Origin: Mobula hypostoma
Taxonomy: Eukaryota
Length of the DNA stretch: 64,000 nt
Reading direction: 5' to 3'
Assembly: GCF_963921235.1 (NCBI RefSeq)
Contig: NC_086097.1
Span: 147,748,001 to 147,812,000 of the forward strand
Each line of letters begins with the position of its first letter. Position 1 is the stretch's first letter. Below, piece by piece: positions 5,172 through 47,620 of this stretch. Made by a program: the position numbers and the translations under genes. The notes under the pieces are model-generated. The model was not told the DNA's origin, made no database searches, and was given only the letters and a program-made list of their open reading frames with translations.

Positions 5172-5380
5172 TCTGCAGATACTAGAGATCTTGAGCAATA
5201 CACACAAAACGCTGGGGGATCTGAGCAAGTCAGGCAGTATCGATTGAGGGGAATATACCGGTTGCCATTCTGCCCGCTTCCATTCCAGTCCTGATGAAGC
5301 ATCCCGTCCCAAAACATTAACTGTTTATTCCCCTTCCTAGATGTTGCCTGACCTGCTGAATTCCTCCAGCTTTTTGTTTT
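5172..5380. mobile_element. Short fold-back Penelope-derived element with a decayed hammerhead
   Basis: Inverted arms (gctgggggatctgagcaagtcaggcagtatc / gatgttgcctgacctgctgaattcctccagc) around cagtcCTGATGA...caaaacatt. Confidence 0.65.
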
Positions 5381-19919: not shown

Positions 19920-20391
19920 GTAAGCCTTCTTCACACCAAATTATTGATGTTATAAAATTCTTTGGATTTCTATTCCTGCTTTGTGATAAGATAAGTAACC
20001 AAATATTAAAAAACTCAACGTCTTTCAGACTTGTACATAAGCAACTAATTATATTTAAGGGAACGTGAGGGGAACTTCTTTACTCAGAGGATAGTGCGAA
20101 TGTGGAACCAGCTGTCGACAGAAATGGCATTGACCTGAAACGTTACATTTCTCTTTCTGCAAACATTGCTTGAGCTGCTCAGCATTTCCAGCAATTTCTA
20201 TTTAGATTTTGAAAGTACAGATATGGCCTTTTATTTTCCCCTTATTCTCCCTGTATTGCTGCTACTGGGGTATTAACAGTATTGAACACTGTCACACCAT
20301 CTTTCATGTTTTGTAATAACTATTTCTTACAGGATGGAGTTTAGTGGTATATTGATTAACGTTCTTCGTAAATGTTACTTAATGTCTCTCA

Positions 20392-22640
20392 GAGTGACAT
20401 AGTTAATTCAGAAGCAAAGGTTCTGAACTTAAAGAGGGGTAACTTTGAAGGTATGAGACGTGAATTAGCTAAGATAGACTGGCAAATGACACTTAAAGGA
20501 TTGACAGTGGATATGCAATGGCAAGCATTTAAAGGTTGCATGGATGAACTACAACTATTGTTCATCCCAGTTTGGCAAAAGAATAAATCAAGGAAGGTAG
20601 TGCACCCGTGGCTGACAAGAGAAATTAGGGATAGTATCAATTCCAAAGAAGAAGCATACAAATTAGCCAGAGAAAGTGGCTCACCTGAGGACTGGGAGAA
20701 ATTCAGAGTTCAGCAGAGGACAAAGGGCTTAATTAGGAAGGGGAAAAAAGATTATGAGAGAAAACTGGCAGGGAACATAAAAACGGACTGTAAAAGCTTT
20801 TATAGATATGTAAAAAGGAAAAGACTGGTAAAGACAAGTGTAGGTCCCCTGCAGACAGAAACAGGTGAATTGATTATGGGGAGCAAGGACATGGCAGACC
20901 AATTGAATAATTACTTTGGTTCTGTCTTCACTAAGGAGGACATAAATAATCTTCCAGAAATAGTAAGGGACAGAGGGTCCAGTGAGATGGAGGAACTGAG
21001 GGAAATACATGTTAGTAGGGAAGTGGTGTTAGGTAAATTGAAGGGATTGAAGGCAGATAAATCCCCAGGGCCAGATGGTCTGCATCCTAGAGTGCTTAAG
21101 GAAGTAGCCCAAGAAATAGTGGATGCATTAGTGATAATTTTTCAAAACTCATTAGATTCTGGACTAGTTCCTGAGGATTGGAGGGTGGCTAATGTAACCC
21201 CACTTTTTAAAAAAGGAGGGAGAGAGAAACCGGGGAACTATAGACCGGTTAGCCTAACGTCGGTGGTGGGGAAACTGCTGGAGTCAGTTATCAAGGATGT
21301 GATAACAGCACATTTGGAAAGCGGTGAAATGATCGGACAAAGTCAGCATGGATTTGTGAAAGGAAAATCATGTCTGACGAATCTCATAGAATTTTTTGAG
21401 GATGTAACTAGTAGAGTGGATAGGGGAGAACCAGTGGATGTGGTATATTTGGATTTTCAAAAGGCTTTTGACAAGGTCCCACACAGTAGATTAGTGTGCA
21501 AACTTAAAGCACACGGTATTGGGGGTAAGGTATTGGTGTGGGTGGAGAATTGGTTAGCAGACAGGAAGCAAAGAGTGGGAATAAACGGGACCTTTTCAGA
21601 ATGGCAGGCGGTGACTAGTGGGGTACCGCAAGGCTCAGTGCTGGGACCCCAGGTGTTTACAATATATATTAATGACTTGGATGAGGGAATTAAATGCAGC
21701 ATCTCCAAGTTTGCGGATGACACGAAGCTGGGTGGCAGTGTTAGCAGTGAGGAGGATGCTAAGAGGATGCAGGGTGACTTGGATAGGTTGGGTGAGTGGG
21801 CAAATTCATGGCAGATGCAATTTAATGTGGATAAATGTGAAGTTATCCACTTTGGTGGCAAAAATAGGAAAACAGATTATTATCTGAATGGTGGCCGATT
21901 AGGAAAAGGGGAGGTGCAACGAGACCTGGGTGTCATTATACACCAGTCATTGAAAGTGGGCATGCAGGTACAGCAGGCGGTGAAAAAGGCGAATGGTATG
22001 CTGGCATTTATAGCGAGAAGATTCGAGTACAGGAGCAGGGAGGTACTACTGCAGTTGTACAAGGCTTTGGTGAGACCACACCTGGAGAATTGTGTGCAGT
22101 TTTGGTCCCCTAATCTGAGGAAAGACATCTTTGCCATAGAGGGAGTACAAAGAAGGTTCACCAGATTGATTCCTGGGATGGCAGGACTTTCATATGAAGA
22201 AAGACTGGATGAATTGGGCTTGTACTCGTTGGAATTTAGAAGATTGAGGGGGGATCTGATTGAAACGTATAAGATCCTAAAGGGATTGGACAGGCTAGAT
22301 GCTGGAAGATTGTTCCCGATGTTGGGGAAGTCCAGAACGAGGGGTCACAGTTTGAGGATAGAGGGGAAACCTTTTAGGACTGAGATTAGGAAAAACTTCT
22401 TCACACAGAGAGTGGTGAATCTGTGGAATTCTCTGCCACAGGAAACTGTTGAGGTCAGTTCATTGGCTATATTTAAGAGGGAGTTAGATATGGCCCTTGT
22501 GGCTACGGGGGTCAGGGGGTATGGAGGGAAGGCTGGGGCGGGGTTCTGAGTTGGATGATCATCCATGATCATAATAAATGGCGGTGCAGGCTCGAAGGGC
22601 CGAATGGCCTACTCCTGCACCCATCTTCTATGTTTCTATG
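20392..22640 (+). mobile_element. Young 5'-truncated CR1 (HER1-like) LINE with an uninterrupted ORF2 RT region
   Basis: Open 725-aa frame containing KSPGPDG, YRPVSL, QHGF, YLDFQKAFD, GVPQGSVLGP and FADD. 3' UTR hairpin (ggctcgaagggccgaatggcct) and (TTCTATG)n tail. No APE endonuclease domain, so 5'-truncated. Confidence 0.95.
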
Positions 22641-22669
22641 TAATTCTGTATTAAAGTATGAATAGAAAA

Positions 22670-23650
22670 TGCTCATTCTCCTACGCTCCAGAAAATAAAG
22701 TCCTAACCTGTTCAACCTTTCCCTATAACTCCAGTACTCAAGACCTGGCAACATCCTTGTAAATTTTCCCTGTACTCTTTCAATCTTAATGATATCTTTC
22801 CTATAGATAGGTGACCAGAACTACACATAATACTCCAGATTTGGCCTCACCAGTGTCTTATACAACTGCAACATAACATCCTAACTCCTGTACTCAATAC
22901 TATGATTTATAAAGACCAATTTGACAAAAGCTCTCTTTCCCACTCTCTCTACCTGTGATGCCACTTTTATGGAATTATGGATCTATATTCCCAGATCCCT
23001 TAGTTCTACTGCATTCCTCAGTGCTCTTCTGCTCACCATGTAAGACCTGCCCTGGTTGGTCCTCCCAAAGTGTAATATCTCATACTTGTCTGCATTAAAT
23101 TCCATTTGTCATTTTTTAGCTGGTCCAGACCCTGCTGCATGCTTTGATAGCCTTCCTCACTATCCACTGTGACCCCCATCTTGGTGTGATCCACAAATGT
23201 GCTGATCTCATTTCGTACACTATCATCCAAATTAAAATAGATGACAAACAACAATGGACCCAGTGCCAATCCCTGTGGCACACCACTAGTCACAGGGCTT
23301 CAGTCAGAGAGGCAACCATCTACTACTGTTCTCTGGCTTCTCCCACTAAGCCAATGTTGAATCCAGTTAATTACTTCATCATTAATGCCAAGCGACTAAA
23401 CTTTCTTGACCAGCCTCCTATGTGGGAATTTGTCAAAGGCCTTGCTAAAATCCATGCAGACAACAGCCGTTGCCTTTCCTTCATCAACTTTACTGGTAAC
23501 CTCTTTGAAAGCTCTATAACATTGGTTAGATACGACCTACCAGGCACAAACTCATGTTGTCATAGGTACATGACTATTCCAAATCAGGACATATCTATCC
23601 AAATGCTTATATATCCTCTCCCTTAGAATACCTTCCATTAACTTACTGAT
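22670..23650 (-). mobile_element. Degenerate CR1 fragment, antisense
   Basis: Minus-strand TSGVPQG..LGPLLFVIY and YRERLNRLGLY.LERRR. Confidence 0.85.
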
Positions 23651-25096
23651 GTCACACTGAATAATAATAATAATAAAGAAGTTATTATGACCACTGGGAA
23701 ATGATGCTGGTGAGGTAGTAATGGGGGACAAAGATATGGCAGATGAACTTAATGAGTACTTTGCATTAGTCTGCACGGTGGAAGACACCAGCAGTGTGTC
23801 AGAGGTCCATGACTATCAGGGAGCAGGAGTGAGTGCCATTGCTTTTACAAAGTAAAAAGTGCTAGGCAAACTGAAAGGTCTTAAAGTGGATAAGTCACCT
23901 GAACCAGATGGACTACATCTCAGGGTCCTGAAAGAAGTTGCTGAAGAGATGCATTGGTCATGATCTTTCAAGAATCCTTTGATTCGGGCATGGCCTCTGA
24001 GAACTGGAAAGTTTCAAATGTCACTCTACTCTTTAAGAAGGGAGGAATGGAAAAGAAAGGAAATTATAGCCCAACTTCAGTGGTTGGAAAAGTGTTGGGA
24101 GTCCATTATTAAGAATGCGGTTTTGGGGTACTTGGAGACTAATGATAAAATAAGTCAAAGTCAGCATGGTTTCTGTCAAGGGAAATCTTGCCTGACAAAT
24201 CTGTTAGAGTTGTTCGAGGAAGTAAGAAGCAGGGTGGACAAAAGAGAGGCAGTGGATGTCATTTACTTAGATTTTCAGAAGGAATTTGATAAGGTGCCTC
24301 ACATGAGGCTGCTTAACAAGATGAAATCCTATGACGCTACAGGAAAGATATTGGCATGGATAGGGGAATGGCTGACAGGCAGTCGCAGCGAATGGGAATA
24401 AAGGGGGCCTTTTCTGGATGGCTGCCAGTGACTAGTGGTGTTTCTCAGGGGTCAGTATTGGGACCGCTACTTTTCACATTGTTTGTCAATGATTTAAATA
24501 ATGGAATTGATGGCCTTGTGGCAAAGTTTGCAGATGATACGAAGATAGGTGAAGAGGTAGGTAGTGCTGATAGGTACTGCATTGTTGTTGCAGTAGGTCT
24601 TAGACAAAAAAGTGGCAGATGGAGTACAGTGTTGGGAAATGTATGATAATGCATTTTGGTAAAAGGAACCCATAGTGCAGACTATTGTTTAAATGAGGAA
24701 AAAATTCAAACATCAGAGGTGCAAAGGGACTTGGGAGTCCTCGTGCAAGACTACCATAAGATTAATTTAAAGGTTGAGTCTGTGGTAAAGAAGGCGAATG
24801 CAATGTTGGCATTTATTTCAAGGGGAGTCGAATATAAAAGCAAGGAGATAATGTTGAGGCTTTATAAGACACTAATCAGCCTGCAGTTGGGATATTGTCA
24901 ACAGTTTTGGGCCCCATGTCGCAGAAAGGATGTGTTGTCAGAGAGTTCAGAGGAGGTTCACAAGGATGATTCTGGGAATGAAGGGGTTAACATATGAGCA
25001 AACACGAGGAATTCTGCAGATGCTGGAAATTCAAGCAACACACATCAAAGTTGCTGGTGAACGCAGCAGGTCAGGCAGCATCACTAGGAAGAGGTA

Positions 25097-25134
25097 CAGT
25101 CGACGTTTCGGGCCGAGACCCTTCGTCGGGACTA
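25097..25134 (-). ncRNA. Hammerhead motif with a U4-to-C change (CCGACGA)
   Basis: Reverse complement of the 26060 motif with one core substitution. Confidence 0.7.
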
Positions 25135-26059
25135 ACTGAAGGAAGAGCTAGTAAGAGATTTGAAAGTGGGAGGCGGAGGGGGAGATCGAAAATGATAGGA
25201 GAAGACAGGAGGGGGAGGGATGGAGCCAAGAGCTGGACAGGTGATTGGCAAAAGGGATATGAGAGGATCATAGGACAGGAGGTCCAGGGAGAAGGAAAAG
25301 GGGGAGGGGGGAAAAACCCAGCGGATGGGCGAGGGGTATAGTCAGAGGGAGAAAAAGGAGAGAGAGAGAAACGAATGGGGTATGAGGGGGAGGTGGGGCA
25401 TTAGCAGAAGCTAGAGAAGTCAATGTTCATGCCATCAGGTTGGAGGCTACCCAGATGGAATATAAGGTGTTGTTCCTCCAACCTGAGTGTGGCTTCATCT
25501 TTACAGTAGAGGAGTCCATGGATAGACATATCAGAATGGGAATGGAATGTGGAATTAAAATGTGTGGCCACTGGGAGATCCAGCTCTCTCTGGCAGACAG
25601 AGCATAGATGTTCAGCAAAACGATCTCCCAGTCTGCGTCGGGTCTCGGCAATATATAAAAGGCCACATCGGGAGCACCGGACGCAGTATATCACCCCAGC
25701 CGACTCACAGGTGAAATGTTGCCTCACCTGGAAGGACTTGACTTCTCTAACTTCCGCTAATGCCCCACCTCCCCCTCGTACCCCATCCGTTATTTATTTA
25801 TATACACACATTCTTTCTCTCTCTCTCCTTTTTCTCCCTCTGTCCCTCTGACTATACGCCTTGCCCATCCTCTGGGTTTTTTTTTCCCCTCCCCTTTTCC
25901 TTCTCCCTGGGCCTCCTGTCCCATGATCCTCTCATATCCCTTTTGCCAATCACCTGTGCAGCTCTTGGCTGCATCCCTCCCCCTCCTGTCTTCTTCTATC
26001 ATTTTGGATCTCCCCCTCCCTCTCCCGCTTTCAAATCTCTTACTAGCTCTTCCTTCAGT

Positions 26060-26097
26060 TAGTCCTGACGAAGGGTCTCGGCCCGAAACGTCGACTG
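26060..26097 (+). ncRNA. Minimal type-I hammerhead ribozyme motif with an intact core
   Basis: tagtc-CTGACGA-a-gggt(ctcg)gccc-GAAA-cg-TC-gactg. Stem I is tagtc/gactg, stem II gggt/gccc, stem III the palindrome ACGT. Predicted cleavage after GUC at 26092. Confidence 0.85.
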
Positions 26098-27083
26098 TAC
26101 CTCTTCCTAGAGATGCTAACTGGCCTGCTGCATTCACCAGCAACTTTGATGCGTGTTCACATATGAGGAGTGTTTGGCAGCTTTAGGCCTGTACTCACTT
26201 AAATTTAGAAAAATGCTGGGGAGACTTATTGAAACCTACCAAATGTTGAAAAGACTAGATAGGGTGGATGTGGGAAGGATATTTCTGATGATGTGGGCAC
26301 AGCCTCAGAATTGAGGGGGGCGACCCTTTAAAACAGAGGTAAGGAAGAATATTTTTAGCCAGAGAGTAGTGAATCTGTGGAATGCTTTGCTTCAGACTAT
26401 GTGAAGGTCAAGTCCATGGGTATATTTAAAGCGGAAGTTGATAGTTTTCTGATAGGTTAGGGCATCAGAGGATATGGTGAAAAGGCAGGTGCATGGGGTT
26501 GAGTGGGATATGGGATCAACCATGATGGAATGTTGGAGTAGACTTGGCCTCCATTCAGCCCTTGGCCTCCATGCCAGTTCTTAGCAAGCGATCAGATTAG
26601 TCCTAATTCCTCTCTTAAATGCTTTTGAGTGTAAAGACGTAATGTTTTAATGATTTTACTACTTCTATTACTTACTGACCTTGCAGAACAAACTTATACT
26701 GAGTTGGTGGCAAGTATTAAAATCTGTTCACAGATTGCTTCTGATACAATTTAGAGATGAGCGGGAGAGAGTGACTTTTTTGTTAACAACTACTACAAGA
26801 TGCTTTTAGTTTACACCTCATAAGCGTTTTATTGCAAGACAAGCATTGATTGACCTTGAAGAAGATGACTTTAAGTGTTCTTCCTTTGGGAAATTGTCCT
26901 TGCTCCATTTTCCCTTGACAGAGGTGACATTTCTTGTAGGAGTTAAAAGTGTGGCCATATGAATTAGAGCTCCTGGCTTAGAATGTTTTGGCCTATTTGG
27001 AGAGTACTCTATGTATTTCCTTGTGATATTTGTACTGCGTTCTTGTAATGAGAGATAAACTGAGACTGATGAATTTTTTTCAG

Positions 27084-27242
27084 AAAGCCGGTCTTCGAGA
27101 AGGCGACTACATTGTCTCAGTGAATGAACAGGATTGCAAGTGGTCCAAGCATTCTGAAGTTGTTCAGTTACTGAAAACTACCAGCACAGAGAGTGTCAAG
27201 ATTGGTGTAATAACACTAAATACTTTTGAACACCAGAATAAT
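27084..27242 (+). CDS. RHPN1: Rhophilin-1 exon, second half of the PDZ domain: KAGLREGDYIVSVNEQDCKWSKHSEVVQLLK...EHQNN
   Basis: tttttttcag acceptor, gtaagt donor, phase 0 to 0. Contains the PDZ motifs AGL..GD.I..VN and H.EVV.LLK. Confidence 0.94.
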
Positions 27243-28222: not shown

Positions 28223-28411
28223 CAAGCAAGAGAAAATCTGCAGATGCTGGAAATCCAAGCAACACACAAAATGCTGGGGGATCTCAGCAGGCCATTCAGC
28301 ATTAATGGAAAAGAGTCCTGCCAAAGGGCCTCGGTCCGAAGCATCGACTGTACTCTTTTCCGTAGATGCTGCCTGGCCTGCTGAGTTTCTCCAGCATTTT
28401 GTGTGTGTTGC
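28223..28411. mobile_element. Short fold-back Penelope-derived element with a decayed hammerhead and a 13-bp TSD
   Basis: Inverted arms of about 55 bp around gagtcCTGCCAA-agggcctcggtcc-GAAGcaTCgactg. TSD TTGCAAAAAGTTA at 28210-28222 and 28412-28424. Confidence 0.85.
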
Positions 28412-29442: not shown

Positions 29443-29562
29443 GCAGACAGGAAATCACTTCTAGGTACAATGTCCTCGACAAGCATCTTCTCTGGCAGTG
29501 ATAAAGAGAACAGCAGGAAAATTGCTGATTCCAGCAAAGGTTCGGGGTTGTTGACAACCTGA
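29443..29562 (+). CDS. RHPN1: Rhophilin-1 terminal coding exon to the first stop: ADRKSLLGTMSSTSIFSGSDKENSRKIADSSKGSGLLTT*. The frame stays open to a second TGA at 29644-29646
   Basis: Strong polypyrimidine tract plus cag acceptor at 29440-29442, phase 0. In-frame TGA at 29560-29562, then NKKKSTSKDGSTHSLPFIAVTDDGSFY*. Confidence 0.8.
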   Translation, partial: ADRKSLLGTMSSTSIFSGSDKENSRKIADSSKGSGLLTT

Positions 29563-35960: not shown

Positions 35961-37209
35961 CTGTAACATTCAACAAGAAACCACAGCCAATTCCATTTTC
36001 CAATTTCAACAACCCAGACACCATCTTTGTGGTATTCCCGATCTCTACTGATATTCACTTCCTTTCTTTCTGTAGCCTCCAATGCATTTGTTGGAAATGT
36101 AATATTGTTTTTTCCCATTTCTGCTGTCACACCCAAGGTTCCAAAAATTCCACCCAGCTGAAGTGGTGAATAACATGTACTTCTTCCAATACTGAAACTC
36201 CATTTATTGTGGTCTTCTCTACGTTGGTGAAACCAAACACAGATTGCCTGATCACTGCAGAACATCCTCAATTAATCAACAATGATGATTCAAAGCTTCC
36301 AGTTGCATGTAACTTTCATCCCACTTGAAATCACCACTTTCACTGTTCAAAGCACTATCTCTTCCTCTAACTAAACATGTTACATAAATACTCAACAGTG
36401 AATTTATCAATTTCGGATTACCAGCTTTTCCCATTTGTGGTAAGGCTGGCCAGTTCAGGCAAAAAGTAAATAACCTGTAATGCTAAATGCTTTTTATCTC
36501 TGCAGATGTTGTCAGACCTGCTGAGTAATTTCAGCATTCTCTGTTTCAGATTTCTAGCTATTGCATCTTGCAGATTCAGTTCTCCAGACAAATATCCAGT
36601 TTTGTTTCTGTCTGTTCTCATTATCTCCTACTATTTTCATGTCATAGAACATAGAATATAGGACAGTACAGCGCAGGAACATGCTCTTTAGCCCACAATT
36701 TCTGCCAGATCAATTAAATTAGTAATCAAATAGCCAACTAAATCTCTTTTGCCTACACATTTTCTTTACAAACTCTTTAATGTATCTAACTCTACCACCA
36801 GGCACCCACTACTCTATGTAAAAAAAAAATAAATTGCCACTCACATCTCCTTTGAAATGATCCCTTCACACCTTAAATGCATGCACTCTGGTTTTAGTCA
36901 TTTTTCTTCCCATAATCATTGCCTATAGTGCTGTACATTTTTAGCATATTCAGCTGCAACTTTTTTTGTTGTTTTTTAGTTTCCAGAGATAGTTATCTAC
37001 CTTTGCAAATAAGTTGTCTTTTGGTGGTAAATAAAAAAGTACTGCTTTCCTACATAAAGTCTTATATAATTTACCTTGGTCTGTTTAAACAAAACCACAT
37101 TAGTGGCTTTCAGAGTAAATTAAGGAAACATACTGAGATAAAGACTAATAAGCAAATTAATTACCTCATCTAATAGATTCTCATGTTGTGAAAGGAGATA
37201 CTTTGTCTC

Positions 37210-40065: not shown

Positions 40066-40890
40066 GGCATCTTTTAATCAATGTTATAAATCTCTTGATT
40101 TCCAAGAACAGCTTAGAGCATTTAGTGGAAAGTTCTTGCCTGTAAATGACGAAGATAGAAATGACTTGATGCTCTTTTTGGTGGAACTGGCTGAGAGGCA
40201 AATGTTTGCTGAAACTACCCTGGGTTTGCTTTGAAAAATGCTTTGGGGTGTATCTTTCAAAGATAGGATCTCAGTCATATTTGGCACCTGAGAAACATCA
40301 TCTTCAACACTTGAATGAAGTGTCAACTTGTATTATCCCTGTAGTATGGCTTAACCTCAATAATGTAGTGATATCTTTGAGTCAAACTACTGAAGGGTTC
40401 TTTGTCCCTTCATACAGCTGTTAGCTAGATTGATAAGAACTCATTTTGTACAGTCGTTTTTGAATGGGGGTACTGAGTCCAAACCTTACTTTAGGACTTG
40501 GACAAAATTCAGGTTCCTGGTGTGTGTGTGGGGGTGTTTGTATGTATATTTATATCTATATCTATCTATCTGGGGTTGGTGGCAGGGAGGAACTTGGCAT
40601 ATTGCATGTATATTTCATTTATCCTGCATATCTCACCATTGGAGTGTAAGATTTATTGTGAAATAGATGCTCTTATCATTCTTGCAATGTTGGGAAAATA
40701 TCCATGTTCTGAAACTCAATTGGTAACCCAATAATGGGAATACAGCGGTGGAACAACTTAGCATATTGTGCAGTAAGCTGAGACAGTTGAAAATGTAATA
40801 ATTTCAATTCTGGCATAGTCCTCTATTACGATACAAGTTCTGGTGCAGTCATTTGAGTTAATTGTTTCTTTTTCTTTTCAACTCCTGCAG

Positions 40891-42532
40891 CTCTTATAAC
40901 GAACCATAAGAATGTTCATGGAGATGTTCCTGCAGTTCCAGCATCTTGTAGTTCACACGGGCAAGGACCATGGGCAAAAAGCAACACTAAATTCACATCT
41001 GTTTGCCCACAAAAAGTGCCAGGACATCATGGGTCAGAATCCAGTAGCTCGTGGCGAACAAAATACTCTCTGGTAAATAAGAAGCCTGTTGATACAAGTG
41101 GTGAGGCACTTAATATCCCTGGAGGCCAGATAATGCCTGCTGGAGTACGTGAGCAGAATACTGTTGGAAAATGCATGGTGAAAACGACTGTGTCTGGAGG
41201 TGGAAACTTGGTTGTCAAGTCAGACAGAGAAGTTCAAGCAAATCCCCGAGCACAGTCTTTGTTGGACCTGAATTCTCAGCTTGCAATGAAGAACGATAAG
41301 CTGTTGGGACTGAAGGCAAAGCTGGATAAGGTGAAAATGAGCAGGAAAATTAATGTAATGGATGGCACAAAGTTAACCTCTTGCAATGGGTCTACTGTGA
41401 AAAGTGCATCAAAGCAAGAAGAGGAAAGGAAGTCCCAGAACATAGACAAGAAAAAGCCACTTGAAGCATCAGGAAATATCAAGGGGAGTGCTTCTTATGA
41501 TTGTTGCAGTATGTTGGCGCATTGTTCTACTAAAACCCCATATATGGAGACAAGTACTGTTAAAACATTTGAGACATCAAAGTATACACTTCAGAAAACC
41601 TATCTGAAGATTGATAAGATTGATCGCATTGCTCGTGAGACTGCTCAGGAAGAGGGTAAATTCCCACAAGTCATGGAGTCAAATAGTGGTGTTTGCACAG
41701 ACCTTGAAGTACCAATAGAAAAGTTGCACAGACCTGCTGTGATGAATAAAATTGCTGAGCACAACAAAAATGACTCTATAAAGTCAGGAAAAGTTCAGAA
41801 TGCTTCAAGTTCTCTAGACCAAGTGCCGTTTAGTACTTCCCCAATTAAAAAATCTAAATATACATGGCAGAAAGGATCAGATCTGAATCTAGATCCTTCA
41901 TCATGTAGGTGCCACAATGAGACTCTGAACAGAGTCATTGAAACAGCCTCTCCCTGTGCTTCTCAGGTTCAAACAATGAATGTGATTGGTAGCTCTTTAA
42001 AATCAAAATCCCCTTTGTCACTTCGAGTACATAAGAAACAAAGGGCCAGTACGCCTCTCTGTAACTGTATGGGTAAGGGTAGGAAAGCGAAGTATGTTTG
42101 GGTTTCTAGCACTGCTCAGTTAAACCAGTCCATGAACTCCACTGAGTTGACACGAAAGTCTGTTTCACCGAGGTTGGTTAAAAGTACTGTAAAATGCATC
42201 GCGGGAAGCAGTAGTACAGCACTCGGTCTAGATGCAGGAGTTAGATCTGTAGGAAAACATAAAAAGGCCGCAAGCTGTCAGAAAATAGGTGGCTTGTCAA
42301 GCAAGTACCGTTGGAAAGCAGTAGAAGCTGTCTCCCCTTCAAGATCACTTTATCAGTGGAAGTCACAGGACTCTTGTAAGACTAGACCTTCAAACCATCA
42401 GACAAGAACTGTATCCCTGAAAAAAGCTGAGCTTGCTATTGATGTCTCAAAAAAGGTGTTGAATGAATCTGCATCTACACATTACAAAATGAAAAGCACA
42501 ACAAAGATTATCAGGAGAAATGGAGGAAAGAG
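40891..42532 (+). CDS. ZC3H3: ZC3H3 large exon 2 (1642 nt; S/K-rich, probably disordered): (A)LITNHKNVHG...WRTKYSLVN...YKMKSTTKIIRRNGGK
   Basis: ctgcag acceptor at 40890, gtaagt donor at 42533, open frame (includes ORF 41016-42536). Contains the ZC3H3 motifs WRxKYSLVN, SKYxWKA and YKxKSxTKIIRR. Confidence 0.92.
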
Positions 42533-43581
42533 GTAAGTTTATTTTAAGGCATAACGCTACTTCACTGCTGAAATATTTGGAGTTGGAGGGGAGCCATAAA
42601 GTGAAATAACTTGAAACATTTTATTGCTTTAGAAGTATGATGTAGTCGCAAGTTATTACAGTTATTCTTTGAAATAGCTGTGTAATTAATTGCAATAGGT
42701 GAGAAAAATGTTTGGTTGGAAATAAGGAAAATGTATTTTGCCAAAAATAATTTTCAAGAACTTTAATTTAGCCAGCAATTATGCCATCTCAACTATTATC
42801 TTCTAGTGTTTCTGCAATTTTTTGTGGTCCAGGGTGTATTTCAGAGGGTGTTCTGCATGTACAGTTTCATTACAATATAATTTTTAACTGAAACAGATTA
42901 GTCTAAACCTCTTGATTTGGAGATGTTTAACTCAAATTAGCTAATATTTATTTTCGAAACACTTAATTTTTACTTTGCATTGTTATTTAAGTAGTTCCTT
43001 TCAAATTGTTTTTACCCCAAAACGATTTATTTTTAAATGAATTTAAATTATCCAATTCTTTGGGAATTTGTAATATTAGCTTAATAGATGAATTGGGAAG
43101 AAAATGGTTTTGTTTTTAATAAATACATTTACTTAGAAAATATATTGTACTTTGTTCATTAACTTGCCTTCTTATGAACCAATTATAATGTCTGAACTGC
43201 TTTTGCATAAGTTAATGTTTACAGAAAGTACTCTTAATGAAGCCAAAATATTTATTAGACCAAAAAACAATGCCATGGTTTTAACTTTCAGTCTGGGTGA
43301 TATGGATGGATTTTTCCTCCCAATATTTGCTTACTGTGAGTTGAACTGTCATTTATTATCCATTGTGGTTGGATGTTGAAAACTGGTATGGGGCTGGTAA
43401 TCAGAGGGTTAAAATACAAATCCAAGATCATTCAAGATATTAGAAATGCCCATGATCATGAGGCCTTAAGGATGTTTTTGACCATCCCTCCAGCAGACAT
43501 GGTGATGATATAATATGAACTTCATTTTGTAAAAATTTAAGTCAGATTTAACCTTCACAAAGTTTCACATAACATGGATAT

Positions 43582-44560
43582 TCCGCCACCTCCAACGGGA
43601 TCCCACCACTAAGCACATCTTTCCCTCCCCCCCCTCTCTGCATTCCGCAGGGATCGCTCCCTACACAACTCCCTTGTCCATTCGTCCCCCCCATCCCTCC
43701 CACTGATCTCCCTCCTGGCACTTATCCGTGTAAGCGGAACAAGTGCTACACGTGCCCTTACACTTCCTCCCTTACCACCATTCAGGGCCCCAAACAGTCC
43801 TTCCAGGTGAGGCATCACTTCACCTGTGAGTCGACTGTGGTGATATACTGCGTCCGGTGCTCCCGATGTGGCCTTTTATATATTGGTGAGACCCGACGCA
43901 GACTGGGAGACCGCTTTGCTGAACATCTACGCTCTGTCCGCCAGAGAAAGCAGGATCTCTCAGTGGCCACACATTTTAATTCCACATCCCATTCCCATTC
44001 TGACATGTCTATCCACGGCCTCCTCTACTGTAAAGATGAAGCCACACTCAGGTTGGAGGAACAACACCTTATATTCCGTCTGGGTAGCCTCCAACCTGAT
44101 GGCATGAACATTGACTTCTCTAACTTCCACTAGGCCCCACCTCCCCCTCGTACCCCATCTGTTACTCATTTTTATGCACACATTCTTTCTCTCACTCTCC
44201 TTTTTCTCCCTCTGTCCCTCTGAATATACCTCTTGCCCATCCTCTGGGTCACCCCCCCCTTGTCTTTCTTCCCAGACCTCCTGTCCCATGATCCTCTCGT
44301 ATCCCCTTTTGCCTATCACCTGTCCAGCTCTTGGCTCTATCCCTCCCCCTCCTGTCTTCTCCTATCATTTTGCATCTCACCCTCCCCCTCCAGCTTTCAA
44401 ATCCCTTACTCACTCTTCCTTCAGTTGGTCCTGACGAAGGGTCTCGGCCTGAAACGTCGACTGCGCCTCTTCCTATAGATGCTGCTTGGCCTGCTGCGTT
44501 CACCAGCAACTTTGATGTGTGTTGCTTGAATTTCCAGCATCTGCAGAATTCCTGTTGTTT
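43582..44560 (+). mobile_element. Penelope-like element, family B: 5'-truncated copy with GIY-YIG and terminal repeat, 8-bp TSD
   Basis: FRHLQRDPTTKHIFP...CKRNKCYTCP...VIYCVRCSRCGLLYIGETRRRLGDRFAEH. TSD ATGGATAT at 43574-43581 and 44561-44568. Confidence 0.92.
44426..44463 (+). ncRNA. Minimal type-I hammerhead ribozyme motif, core intact (G-U at the base of stem II)
   Basis: tggtc-CTGACGA-a-gggtctcggcct-GAAA-cg-TC-gactg. Confidence 0.8.
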
Positions 44561-44834
44561 ATGGATATGTTATTAATGTCTAGCTGATTTTTGGTAGTCT
44601 GTTACATAAAGCTATGCTACTTCTGTGGTGCATGAGGTTCCTCATATTGCACTAAAATTATTTATAATTTCTAATTTTAGAAATAATGCTGTTTTTGGGA
44701 TTTTTATATAACATTTGGAATTACAAAATTTCCAAGGAGCAACACCAAATAAAGTTGGCTCCAAACCACTTGTGTACTGCTTCCATTTATTTAGTACATG
44801 TAAATACATCAAGAAGGCCCCACAGTAACTTCCT

Positions 44835-45909: not shown

Positions 45910-47620
45910 CAGTTGAAGTCAGCAGTTTACATACACCTTAGCCAAATACATTTAAACTCAGTTTTTCACAATTCCTGACATTTAATCCTAGAAAACATTC
46001 CCTGTCTTAGATCAGTTAGGATCACTACTTTATTTTAAGAATGTGAAATGTCAGAGTAATAGTAGAGAGAATGATTTATTTCAGCTTTTATTTCTTTCAT
46101 CGCTTTCCCAGTGGGTCAGAAGTTTACATACACTTTGTTAGCATTTGGTAGTATTGCCTTTAAATTGTTTAACTTGGATCAAACATTTTTGGGTTGCCTT
46201 CCACAAGCTTCTCACAGTAAGTTGCTGGAATTTTGTTCCATTCCTCCAGACAGAACCGGTGTAACGAGTCAGGTTTGTAGGCCTTTTTGCTTGCACATAT
46301 TTTTTCAGTTCTGCCCACAAATTTTCTATCGGATTGAGGTCAGAAAATGATGTCAAGTATGGTACATCCTTGGGAGCAATTTCCAAACACCTGAAGGTAC
46401 CACGTTCATCTGTACAAACAATAGTACGCAAGTATAAACACCATGGGACCACGCAGCCGTCATACTGCTCAGGAAGGAGAAGCATTCTGTTTCCTAGAGA
46501 TGAACGTACTTTGGTGTGAAAAGTGCAAATCAATCCCAGAACAACAGCAAAGGACCTTGTGAAGATGCTGGAGGAAACAGGTAGACAAGTATCTATATCC
46601 ACAGTAAAACGAGTCCTATATTGACATAACCTAAAAGGCTGCTCAGCAAGGAAGAAGCCACTGCTCCAAAACCGCTATAAAAAAAGCCAGACTACAGTTT
46701 GCAAGTGCACATGGGGACAAAGATCTTACTTTTTGGAGAAATGTCCTCTGGTCTGATGAAACAAAAATTGAACTGTTTGGCCATAATAACCATCGTTATG
46801 TTTGGAGGAAAAAGGGTGAGGCTTGCAAGCCGAAGAACACCATCCCAACCATGAAGCATGGGGGTGGCAGCATCATGTTGTGGGGGTGCTTTGTTGCAGG
46901 AGGGACTGGTGCACTTCACAAAATAGATGGCATCATGAGGAAGGAAAATGATGTGGATATATTGAAGCAACATTTCAAGACATCAGCCAGGAAGGGTCTC
47001 GGCCTGAAACGTCGACTGCACCTCTTCCTACAGATGCTGCCTGGCCTGCTACGTTCACCAGCAACTTTGATGTATGTAGCCAGGAAGTTAAAGCTGGTCG
47101 CGAAAGGGCCTTCCAAATGGACAATGACCCCAAGCATACCTCCAAAGTTGTGGCAAAGTTACTTGAGGACAACAAAGTCAAGGTATTGGATTGGCATCAC
47201 AAAGCCCTGACCTCAATCTGATAGAAAATTTGTGGGCAGAACTGTAAAAGCGTGTGCGAGCAAGGAGGCCTACAAGCCTGACTCCATTACACCAGTTCTG
47301 TCTGGAGGAATGGAACAAAGTTCCAGCAACTTACTGTGAGAAGCTTGTGGAAGACTACCCAAAACGTTTGATGCAATGCTACCAAATGCTAACAAAGTGT
47401 ATGTAAACTTCTGACCCACTGGGAAAATGATGAAAGAAATAAAAGCTGAAATAAATCATTCTCTCTACTACTATTCTGACATTTCACATTCTTAAAATAA
47501 AGTAGTGATCCTAACTGACCTAAGACAGGGAATGTTTTCTAGGATTAAATGTCAGGAATTGTGAAAAACTGAGCTTAAATATATTTGGCTAAGGTGTATG
47601 TAAACTTCTGACTTCAACTG
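45910..47620 (+). mobile_element. Sleeping Beauty/Tss1-family Tc1 transposon, rearranged and inactivated
   Basis: Ends cagttgaagtc...gacttcaactg with a TA TSD. IR/DR cores agtttacatacac. Transposase remnant SLGAISK.LKVPRSSVQTIVRKYKHHGTTQPSY...WSDETKIELFGHN...KHGGGSIMLWGCF...MDNDPKH...DLN.IENLWAEL with stops and frameshifts. Confidence 0.95.
46995..47077 (+). mobile_element. 83-bp Penelope terminal fragment inserted in the Tc1 transposase, 10-bp TSD
   Basis: ggtctcggcctGAAACGTCgactg...caactttgatgt matches the family B end. TSD AGCCAGGAAG at 46985-46994 and 47078-47087. Confidence 0.9.

Follow-up and report, generated by a model that had tools for sequence, protein, structure and literature searches.

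Amniote introns hold conserved hammerhead ribozymes, each present as a single copy at the same orthologous site across species. The minimal hammerheads of metazoan Penelope-like elements (PLEs; Cervera and De la Pena 2014, PMC4209133), reported also for the Neptune PLEs of fishes, lie one per pLTR, mostly in single truncated copies; the relevant parts of that paper describe a type I motif without loop III, with a palindrome at 15.2-16.2, an extra base between 9 and 10.1, a G10.1-C11.1 pair and a short helix I. The Poseidon element PAc of Anolis carolinensis (Frangieh et al. 2024, PMC11167929, in the sections drawn on here) has a hammerhead near the start of its frame, two reverse transcription (RT) starts past the hammerhead and an optional tail, and its main template is uncut RNA. 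PLE units of the EN+ type with an inverted 5'-truncated copy, a one-sided tail and a target duplication are described in parts of PMC8557442 and PMC3846280, and the excerpted accounts of animal non-LTR retrozymes (PMC7229834; 10.64898/2026.07.22.740005) give a type I, PLE-related motif present in very many copies, as many as 120,000 in axolotl. The family described here shares the features listed for each of these PLE and retrozyme systems, its use of templates being suggested by its insertion ends. It is likely that the motif considered below is a PLE 3'-end hammerhead left in an intron of RHPN1 by a truncated head-to-head insertion, and that it does not cut the host pre-mRNA.

The motif occupies positions 26060-26097 of a window of 64,000 nucleotides, the whole stretch of Mobula hypostoma DNA that was analysed, and its sequence confirms it as a genuine minimal type I hammerhead motif. 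Stem I pairs 26060-64 with 26093-97 over 5 bp; the CUGACGA core (26065-71) is followed by one extra A; stem II, 4 bp of GGGU/GCCC around CUCG, leads to GAAA and then C-G-U-C; loop III is absent, and a palindromic ACGU stands at 26088-26091, in the place of 15.1-16.1, where a dimer helix could form. The type I order of CUGANGA, GAAA and UH is complete, and by the features given in the available text of PMC4209133 the motif has a helix I of 4-5 bp, a G10.1-C11.1 helix II and the extra base after A9; the helix II of 4 bp differs from the 7-8 bp reported there for Schistosoma. The core, the 5-bp stem I, the 4-bp stem II and the loop-less stem III had been read in the same way in a preliminary description, to which two U-G wobbles, one closing stem I on the outside and one at the top of stem II, can now be added; the cleavage position proposed there, 26092/26093, agrees with the cut predicted from the sequence. 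An Rfam search at the gathering score gave 0 matches across the 64-kb window, the 26060 motif included. The features of the window are as follows.

19920-27083, + strand: RHPN1 intron with GT-AG ends, 7,164 nt, from exon mapping
24990-24998, + strand: left copy of the 9-bp target-site duplication, in a LINE RT fragment
24999-25737, - strand: antisense arm with the GIY-YIG end, 3' UTR, hammerhead and a 37-nt tail, stopping 103 nt past its cut site
25097-25134, - strand: hammerhead of the antisense arm, with the core change U4C, predicted to pair with the sense copy in RHPN1 pre-mRNA
25404-25737, - strand: remnant of a GIY-YIG endonuclease frame, whose paralogous copy at 43573-44130 scores above the Pfam GIY-YIG cut-off
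25738-26158, + strand: sense arm, a 5'-truncated PLE 3' end without tail, stopping 66 nt past the cut site
26046-26076, + strand: predicted alternative hairpin occupying the 5' half of the core, from folding in context
26060-26097, + strand: minimal type I hammerhead with intact core and predicted cut at 26092/26093, from sequence and folds
26159-26167, + strand: right copy of the target-site duplication
43581-44572, + strand: longer truncated copy of the same family, its hammerhead at 44426-44463 having an intact core

Seven RHPN1 exons were mapped, all on the + strand and one of them 100% identical over 64 aa to Hypanus sabinus rhophilin-1, which marks the genome as that of a batoid, and the motif falls within a GT-AG intron, which bears out its earlier placement in sense orientation in this gene. 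Contigs from 2 of 4 sequencing runs, which are guessed to be RNA and may include the individual from which the genome was made, join the exon at 27084-27242 to that from 29443 onward with 0 other letters; the junction spanned is that of the two exons after the motif's intron, and the longer of the splice-joining contigs carries 1,357 further letters upstream. Spliced RHPN1 RNA exists. In the last RHPN1 exon, a TGA stands at 29560-29562 where Hypanus sabinus rhophilin-1 has Trp, making the C-terminus about 23 residues shorter; it is unlikely to be an assembly error, since contigs of 2 runs have the same letters. The intron that holds the motif also holds, in sense, a LINE RT frame of 725 residues (20372-22546; Pfam RVT_1, E 1.8e-33). 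Just downstream of RHPN1 and on the same strand lies a long ZC3H3-like exon (40857-42533, +; Atlas score 0.90, a lead); given this exon, at about 40892-42533 on the + strand, the later copies in the window are probably intronic too.

On the sequence, the motif is the 3' end (pLTR) of a putative Neptune-type Penelope-like retrotransposon, in a truncated head-to-head insertion with a 9-bp duplication. The arms are identical at 361 of 386 positions (93.5%), and the antisense arm, absent from the preliminary description, lies about 1 kb upstream of the motif in the same pre-mRNA. The layout is identical to that of the EN+ units mentioned above, with no substantive difference, and the one-sided tail is itself known for Penelope-like elements (PMC8557442, PMC3846280, in the parts available). 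Because the arms are 93.5% identical and the target duplication is clean, the insertion is recent; set beside the single-copy intronic hammerheads of amniotes, the 26060 family is multi-copy. A co-opted role of the 26060 copy in controlling the splicing or the level of RHPN1, whether it acted as a ribozyme or as long dsRNA for editing, is extremely improbable: its core is intact about 1 kb from the 3' splice site and its arms would, by prediction, form a duplex of ~390 bp, but the insertion is recent, as the arms and the duplication indicate, and about 4 in 10 young copies (20/49) have an intact core anyway, so that the intactness of this one requires no selection.

The RT end of the element was searched for in the genome, giving 69,113 candidates, of which 150 were scored; 12 loci with long frames and 3 tandem sites were examined. 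Three of these loci (L167, L168 and L169) carry uninterrupted frames of 1043 aa with RT, a DKG motif, a CX4CxxC linker and GIY-YIG, flanked by direct repeats that hold identical intact hammerheads. Both pLTRs contain a hammerhead in these three and in L175; a distance of 3,514 nt separates the cut sites of the pair in L167. The domains of the parent frame (RVT_1, E 3e-5; GIY-YIG, E 4e-4) are both under the Pfam cut-offs, and relatives have the same domains. A single RT frame with a C-terminal GIY-YIG and two cysteines between GIY and YIG was found, as in EN+ PLEs, together with direct or inverted pLTRs, partial tandems and a one-sided tail of 30-40 bp; the GIY-YIG remnant, the Pfam domains and these full-length parents uphold the PLE origin proposed at first. 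The CX4CxxC linker of L168 fits the CX2-5CxxC of Neptune, shared with Nematis according to the definition excerpted from PMC8557442. The label Neptune-type rests on the linker together with the vertebrate host; the linker by itself would mark Neptune or Nematis. As judged from the consulted part of PMC11167929, PAc belongs to a different clade, the CX4CxxC linker being the ray element's, and its first in-frame ATG lies before the cut, whereas that of the ray element lies ~60 nt past it. L167, L168 and L169 are ~99% identical to one another, so the family was active recently; the arms in the window are 87% identical to them. Three further loci (L170, L172 and L180) are near-full-length, with multi-kilobase inverted arms that are ~99% identical and would give very long dsRNA if transcribed.

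Ten places in the window match at least 26 of the 38 letters in an ungapped scan, the best of 100 shuffles reaching 24; they include 5286, 25097(-), 28313, 44426, 46981, 50347, 54307, 63120(-) and 63125. A profile search gave 17 copies, 10 on the + and 7 on the - strand, and recovered that at 37208 (E 1.7e-4). Of the related copies listed in the preliminary description, those at 5291, 25097(-), 28317, 37214, 44426, 46995, 50347, 54307 and in the 63083/63127 region were found again by scan or profile; the one at 562 proved to belong to a different decayed element, being by eye a long-stem-II motif behind a different GIY-YIG-like fragment. This fragment at 112-620, decayed and followed by the hammerhead-like remnant with a 7-bp stem II at 562, is probably part of a second, Poseidon-type PLE family; the Pfam search of the window gave no match for it near 562. 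The full core is kept in only 2 of the 17 copies (26060 and 44426), in line with the earlier remark that most copies in the window carry core changes. A sense bias among the first 10 matches disappears in the profile search and in the genes described below. At 46635-47207, a Tc1/mariner-like transposase remnant, recognized by motif and without a Pfam match, is broken by a hammerhead-bearing PLE stub at 46991-47080.

In the 3.48-Gb genome, an exact 34-mer of the motif occurs 5,457 times, and 65,202 motifs have an intact core and stems under a pattern in which the core and stem II must be present along with the cleavage triplet and 3 bp from stem I (reversed control, 0). Between the matched exons of 47 kinesin and myosin genes (1,339,516 bases), 227 family copies were found (reversed control, 0), a density that would correspond to ~590,000 copies genome-wide if typical; 16 intact copies in these 1.34 Mb are in sense. 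Both expectations raised earlier, very many PLE-borne ribozyme motifs in the genome and many of them inside host pre-mRNAs, are supported by these counts. The numbers given in the pertinent part of PMC4209133, obtained with another descriptor, are ~4,000 for coelacanth and ~9,000 for Xenopus; two supplementary files of that paper have no shark, skate or Callorhinchus entry, and the preprint 10.64898/2026.07.22.740005, in its accessible part, samples one chondrichthyan genome. A search chiefly of freely readable literature found no paper on this PLE in rays. Retrozymes, as these sources describe them, form short non-coding tandem arrays and are depleted in Xenopus introns, whereas in the ray a coding element has left truncated ends, most of them single or inverted, and no depletion was seen; these copies run into GIY-YIG/RT coding sequence, and among 16 intact sense copies 3 have another copy on the same strand less than 4 kb away.

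The preliminary description had also suggested that decay or selection may be inactivating the copies; in its selective form, this would mean that copies in sense damage the host and that selection removes or disables them. Core changes are present in most copies, the core being kept in 54 of the 150 that span the motif, and tandem retrozymes are under-represented in Xenopus introns (10.64898/2026.07.22.740005, as excerpted). Against purging, the orientation in the 47 genes is 115 sense to 112 antisense (p 0.89), and the intact motifs favour sense, 16 to 9, with 25.1 expected in all from a genome-wide density that includes genes; the sample is small, 16 versus 12.6 expected leaving room for a loss of about a quarter (Poisson). 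The intact-core fraction, a check named beforehand, shows no difference between sense (27/78) and antisense (27/72; p 0.74), and the non-CpG core changes of young copies occur at equal rates (6/243 and 5/198). In the rest of the motif, the CpG sites of these young copies mutate 5-7 times faster. Selection acting on sense intronic copies is therefore very unlikely on these numbers; core decay looks like ordinary CpG-led drift, and inserted copies would decay like neutral DNA.

Constraint appears to act elsewhere. Subfamily consensuses agree with one another at 89-97% of positions in the motif and at 55-89% in the 38 nt upstream of it, and this better preservation implies that constraint acts in active lineages and that the hammerhead matters to active elements. 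A comparison of core (11/441) and flank (122/2390) mutations in young copies was discarded as a measure of selection, since the filter demanded core matches and the flank holds subfamily differences. Stem covariation across genomic copies, which had been put forward as a touchstone of the fold, did not emerge within the genome: 10 two-sided changes were counted among 105 ungapped copies of the 227, versus a shuffled mean of 7.2, and 68 of 500 shuffles reached this number. The frequent stem variants in the 105 copies are one-sided, wobble-compatible changes. Dead copies descended from a few masters would be expected to covary this weakly, and the result neither establishes the fold nor disproves it. 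A cut in the middle of an intron may be tolerated by splicing, so lacking selection does not prove lacking cleavage.

Cleavage itself can be considered from predicted folds, whose energies leave aside tertiary contacts, co-transcriptional timing and proteins. The minimum-energy fold of the monomer is predicted to be an inactive rod in which GACG pairs with CGUC (-12.9 versus -8.9 kcal/mol for the open hammerhead). A double hammerhead can be drawn at -16.7 kcal/mol but is not the most stable dimer, the plain duplex having -34.1 kcal/mol. In the RHPN1 pre-mRNA, all 38 nt are predicted to be paired with the antisense arm (probability 1.00), which would be transcribed 1 kb earlier and lock the motif; forcing the hammerhead in the 1,160-nt insert costs ~74 kcal/mol. 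An inverted partner lies within 2 kb of half the intact sense copies in the gene sample (8 of 16) and is missing at that distance for the other 8, and positions 1-30000 of the window contain no other same-strand copy with an intact cleavage half. The hairpin upstream of the motif was compared with 1000 upstream shuffles, of which 20-29 fold as well in the young subfamilies and 82 and 466 in two older ones; an anti-ribozyme hairpin conserved across subfamilies was thus rejected, as only the young ones beat the shuffles. According to the portions of the two papers used here, minimal hammerheads showed no cleavage when single and only weak activity as dimers (PMC4209133), and the anole PLE hammerhead needs protein, while its mutants still insert, making it dispensable for insertion in vitro (PMC11167929). 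The predicted inert fold fits these bench data. In the active element, the ribozyme may cut only with help, from the element's protein or from a second copy.

The ends of inserted copies bear on the same question. Among 71 listed copies from the gene sample and the window, the 3' ends fall at +35 to +76 or at +95 to +114 from the cut, two groups ~37 nt apart and all past the cut site; the same groups recur in 59 of 60 further young copies, picked only by sequence past +22, and match the two RT start sites and tail reported in the available part of PMC11167929. As the 3' ends lie past the cut site, templates ran through it, and as the 5' ends pile at the 5' edge of the hammerhead and not at the cut, templates were mostly uncut. 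Reverse transcription would thus start downstream of the cut site on mostly uncut RNA. The 5' ends were taken from 54 young copies, after 6 partners of inverted pairs had been dropped: 16 of 46 at risk end at -45 to -17, versus 1.6 expected from the rate further upstream. Roughly one young copy in three stops at the 5' edge of the hammerhead, where the boundary is sharp and falls between -32 and -33. A piling of copy starts at the cut site was looked for and rejected (3/54 within 3 nt; 2/71 at +1).

A different explanation would be that sense intronic copies cut the pre-mRNA at a low rate, via trans pairing or the element's protein, and that the host tolerates this because long introns are still spliced. 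Family sequence is abundant in the contigs of the runs guessed to be RNA, the 65,202 intact copies could provide trans partners, half of the intact sense intronic copies lack a nearby inverted partner, and protein-assisted cleavage has been shown for another PLE (PMC11167929, in part). This explanation is nevertheless unlikely, since the rod and duplex folds are far more stable than the double hammerhead, few young copies start near the cut, the anole RNA-seq in the cited part of PMC11167929 has no reads ending at the cut site, and the 26060 copy is predicted to be locked by its antisense arm. The reading of a silent remnant is preferred.

Genome-wide, copies starting at -31 gave 1,908 matches (16 of 20 inspected being true ends), those at -32 gave 1,676 (30 of 30), and those at -33 gave 433 as a raw count of matches; a single-base peak at -32 was rejected, as -31 is equally frequent. 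A preceding G was found in 47 of 100 at -32 and 48 of 100 at -33 among the matches listed. Among solo copies flanked by a target duplication, 5 of 9 at -32 show one or two additional letters that include a G, and 1 of 6 at -31 shows an additional letter; a cap-derived G is a 5'-end signature in the part of PMC3287187 cited here. The pile-up may mean that the RNA starts there, the hammerhead being the 5' end of the transcript. It may also be that RT is stalled by hairpins (stem I and the upstream one, centred at -34 to -29), which would favour the fold-back joining visible at several inverted junctions; the relevant passages of PMC3846280 describe palindromes at the 5' ends of pLTRs and inverted junctions, and propose fold-back joining for palindromes at PLE junctions. 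The available text of PMC11167929 does not describe such a pile-up for PAc, and no paper describing one was found in a search chiefly of freely readable literature. A pyrimidine tract and AG directly before stem I (26046-26066) resemble a 3' splice site in all subfamilies, and in Drosophila Penelope an intron end meets helix I (PMC4209133, in part); no spliced copies using this AG as acceptor were found, the sole internal deletion having no GT donor.

Another finding concerns an older subfamily, B, with 29 of the 227 copies (~13%), which is about 13% diverged and has C at core position 6 in most copies, giving the core CUGCUGA. None of its 21 motif-spanning copies has the canonical core, and its members retain RT and GIY-YIG remnants; examples are window 28313-28350 and the loci L154, L155 and L159. 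Genome-wide, 956 otherwise intact motifs carry A6C, part of them being point changes in the young family, versus 653 with A6G and A6T together. Two other hammerheads cleave far less with Mg2+ when they carry A6C, according to the pertinent sections of Naghdi et al. 2020 (PMC7151607), and the same core variant occurs in the hammerhead of phage Bcep176; there it concerns one natural ribozyme and one engineered mutant, whereas in the ray most copies of an amplified retrotransposon subfamily carry it, the 26060 copy not being among them. The spread of A6C would fit cutting being dispensable or assisted.

Based on the 5' ends and this subfamily, a tentative model, which we consider possible rather than probable, is that transcription begins with the first bases of stem I, which would place the hammerhead at the RNA's capped 5' end, where cleavage would remove the cap from the message. 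The ribozyme would then be a protein-gated off-switch or an mRNA-to-template switch and not a unit-length processor, and the A6C spread would mean that mass amplification can do without Mg2+-dependent cutting. If this is true, the genome would be a fossil map of the element's RNA.

The class to which the motif belongs is already known (Cervera 2014; Frangieh 2024); what is new is the scale, the negative test of intronic selection, the map of 5' ends and the A6C subfamily. The single copy at 26060 matters little. The function of PLE hammerheads is called unclear in the part of PMC8557442 consulted, and the family is a good test bed for what they do, offering near-identical intact parents, ~65,000 intact motifs, by extrapolation about half a million remnants, a natural core-variant subfamily and mappable insertion ends. 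That introns show no purging of sense copies hints, in quantitative terms, that minimal hammerheads stay silent in host pre-mRNA.
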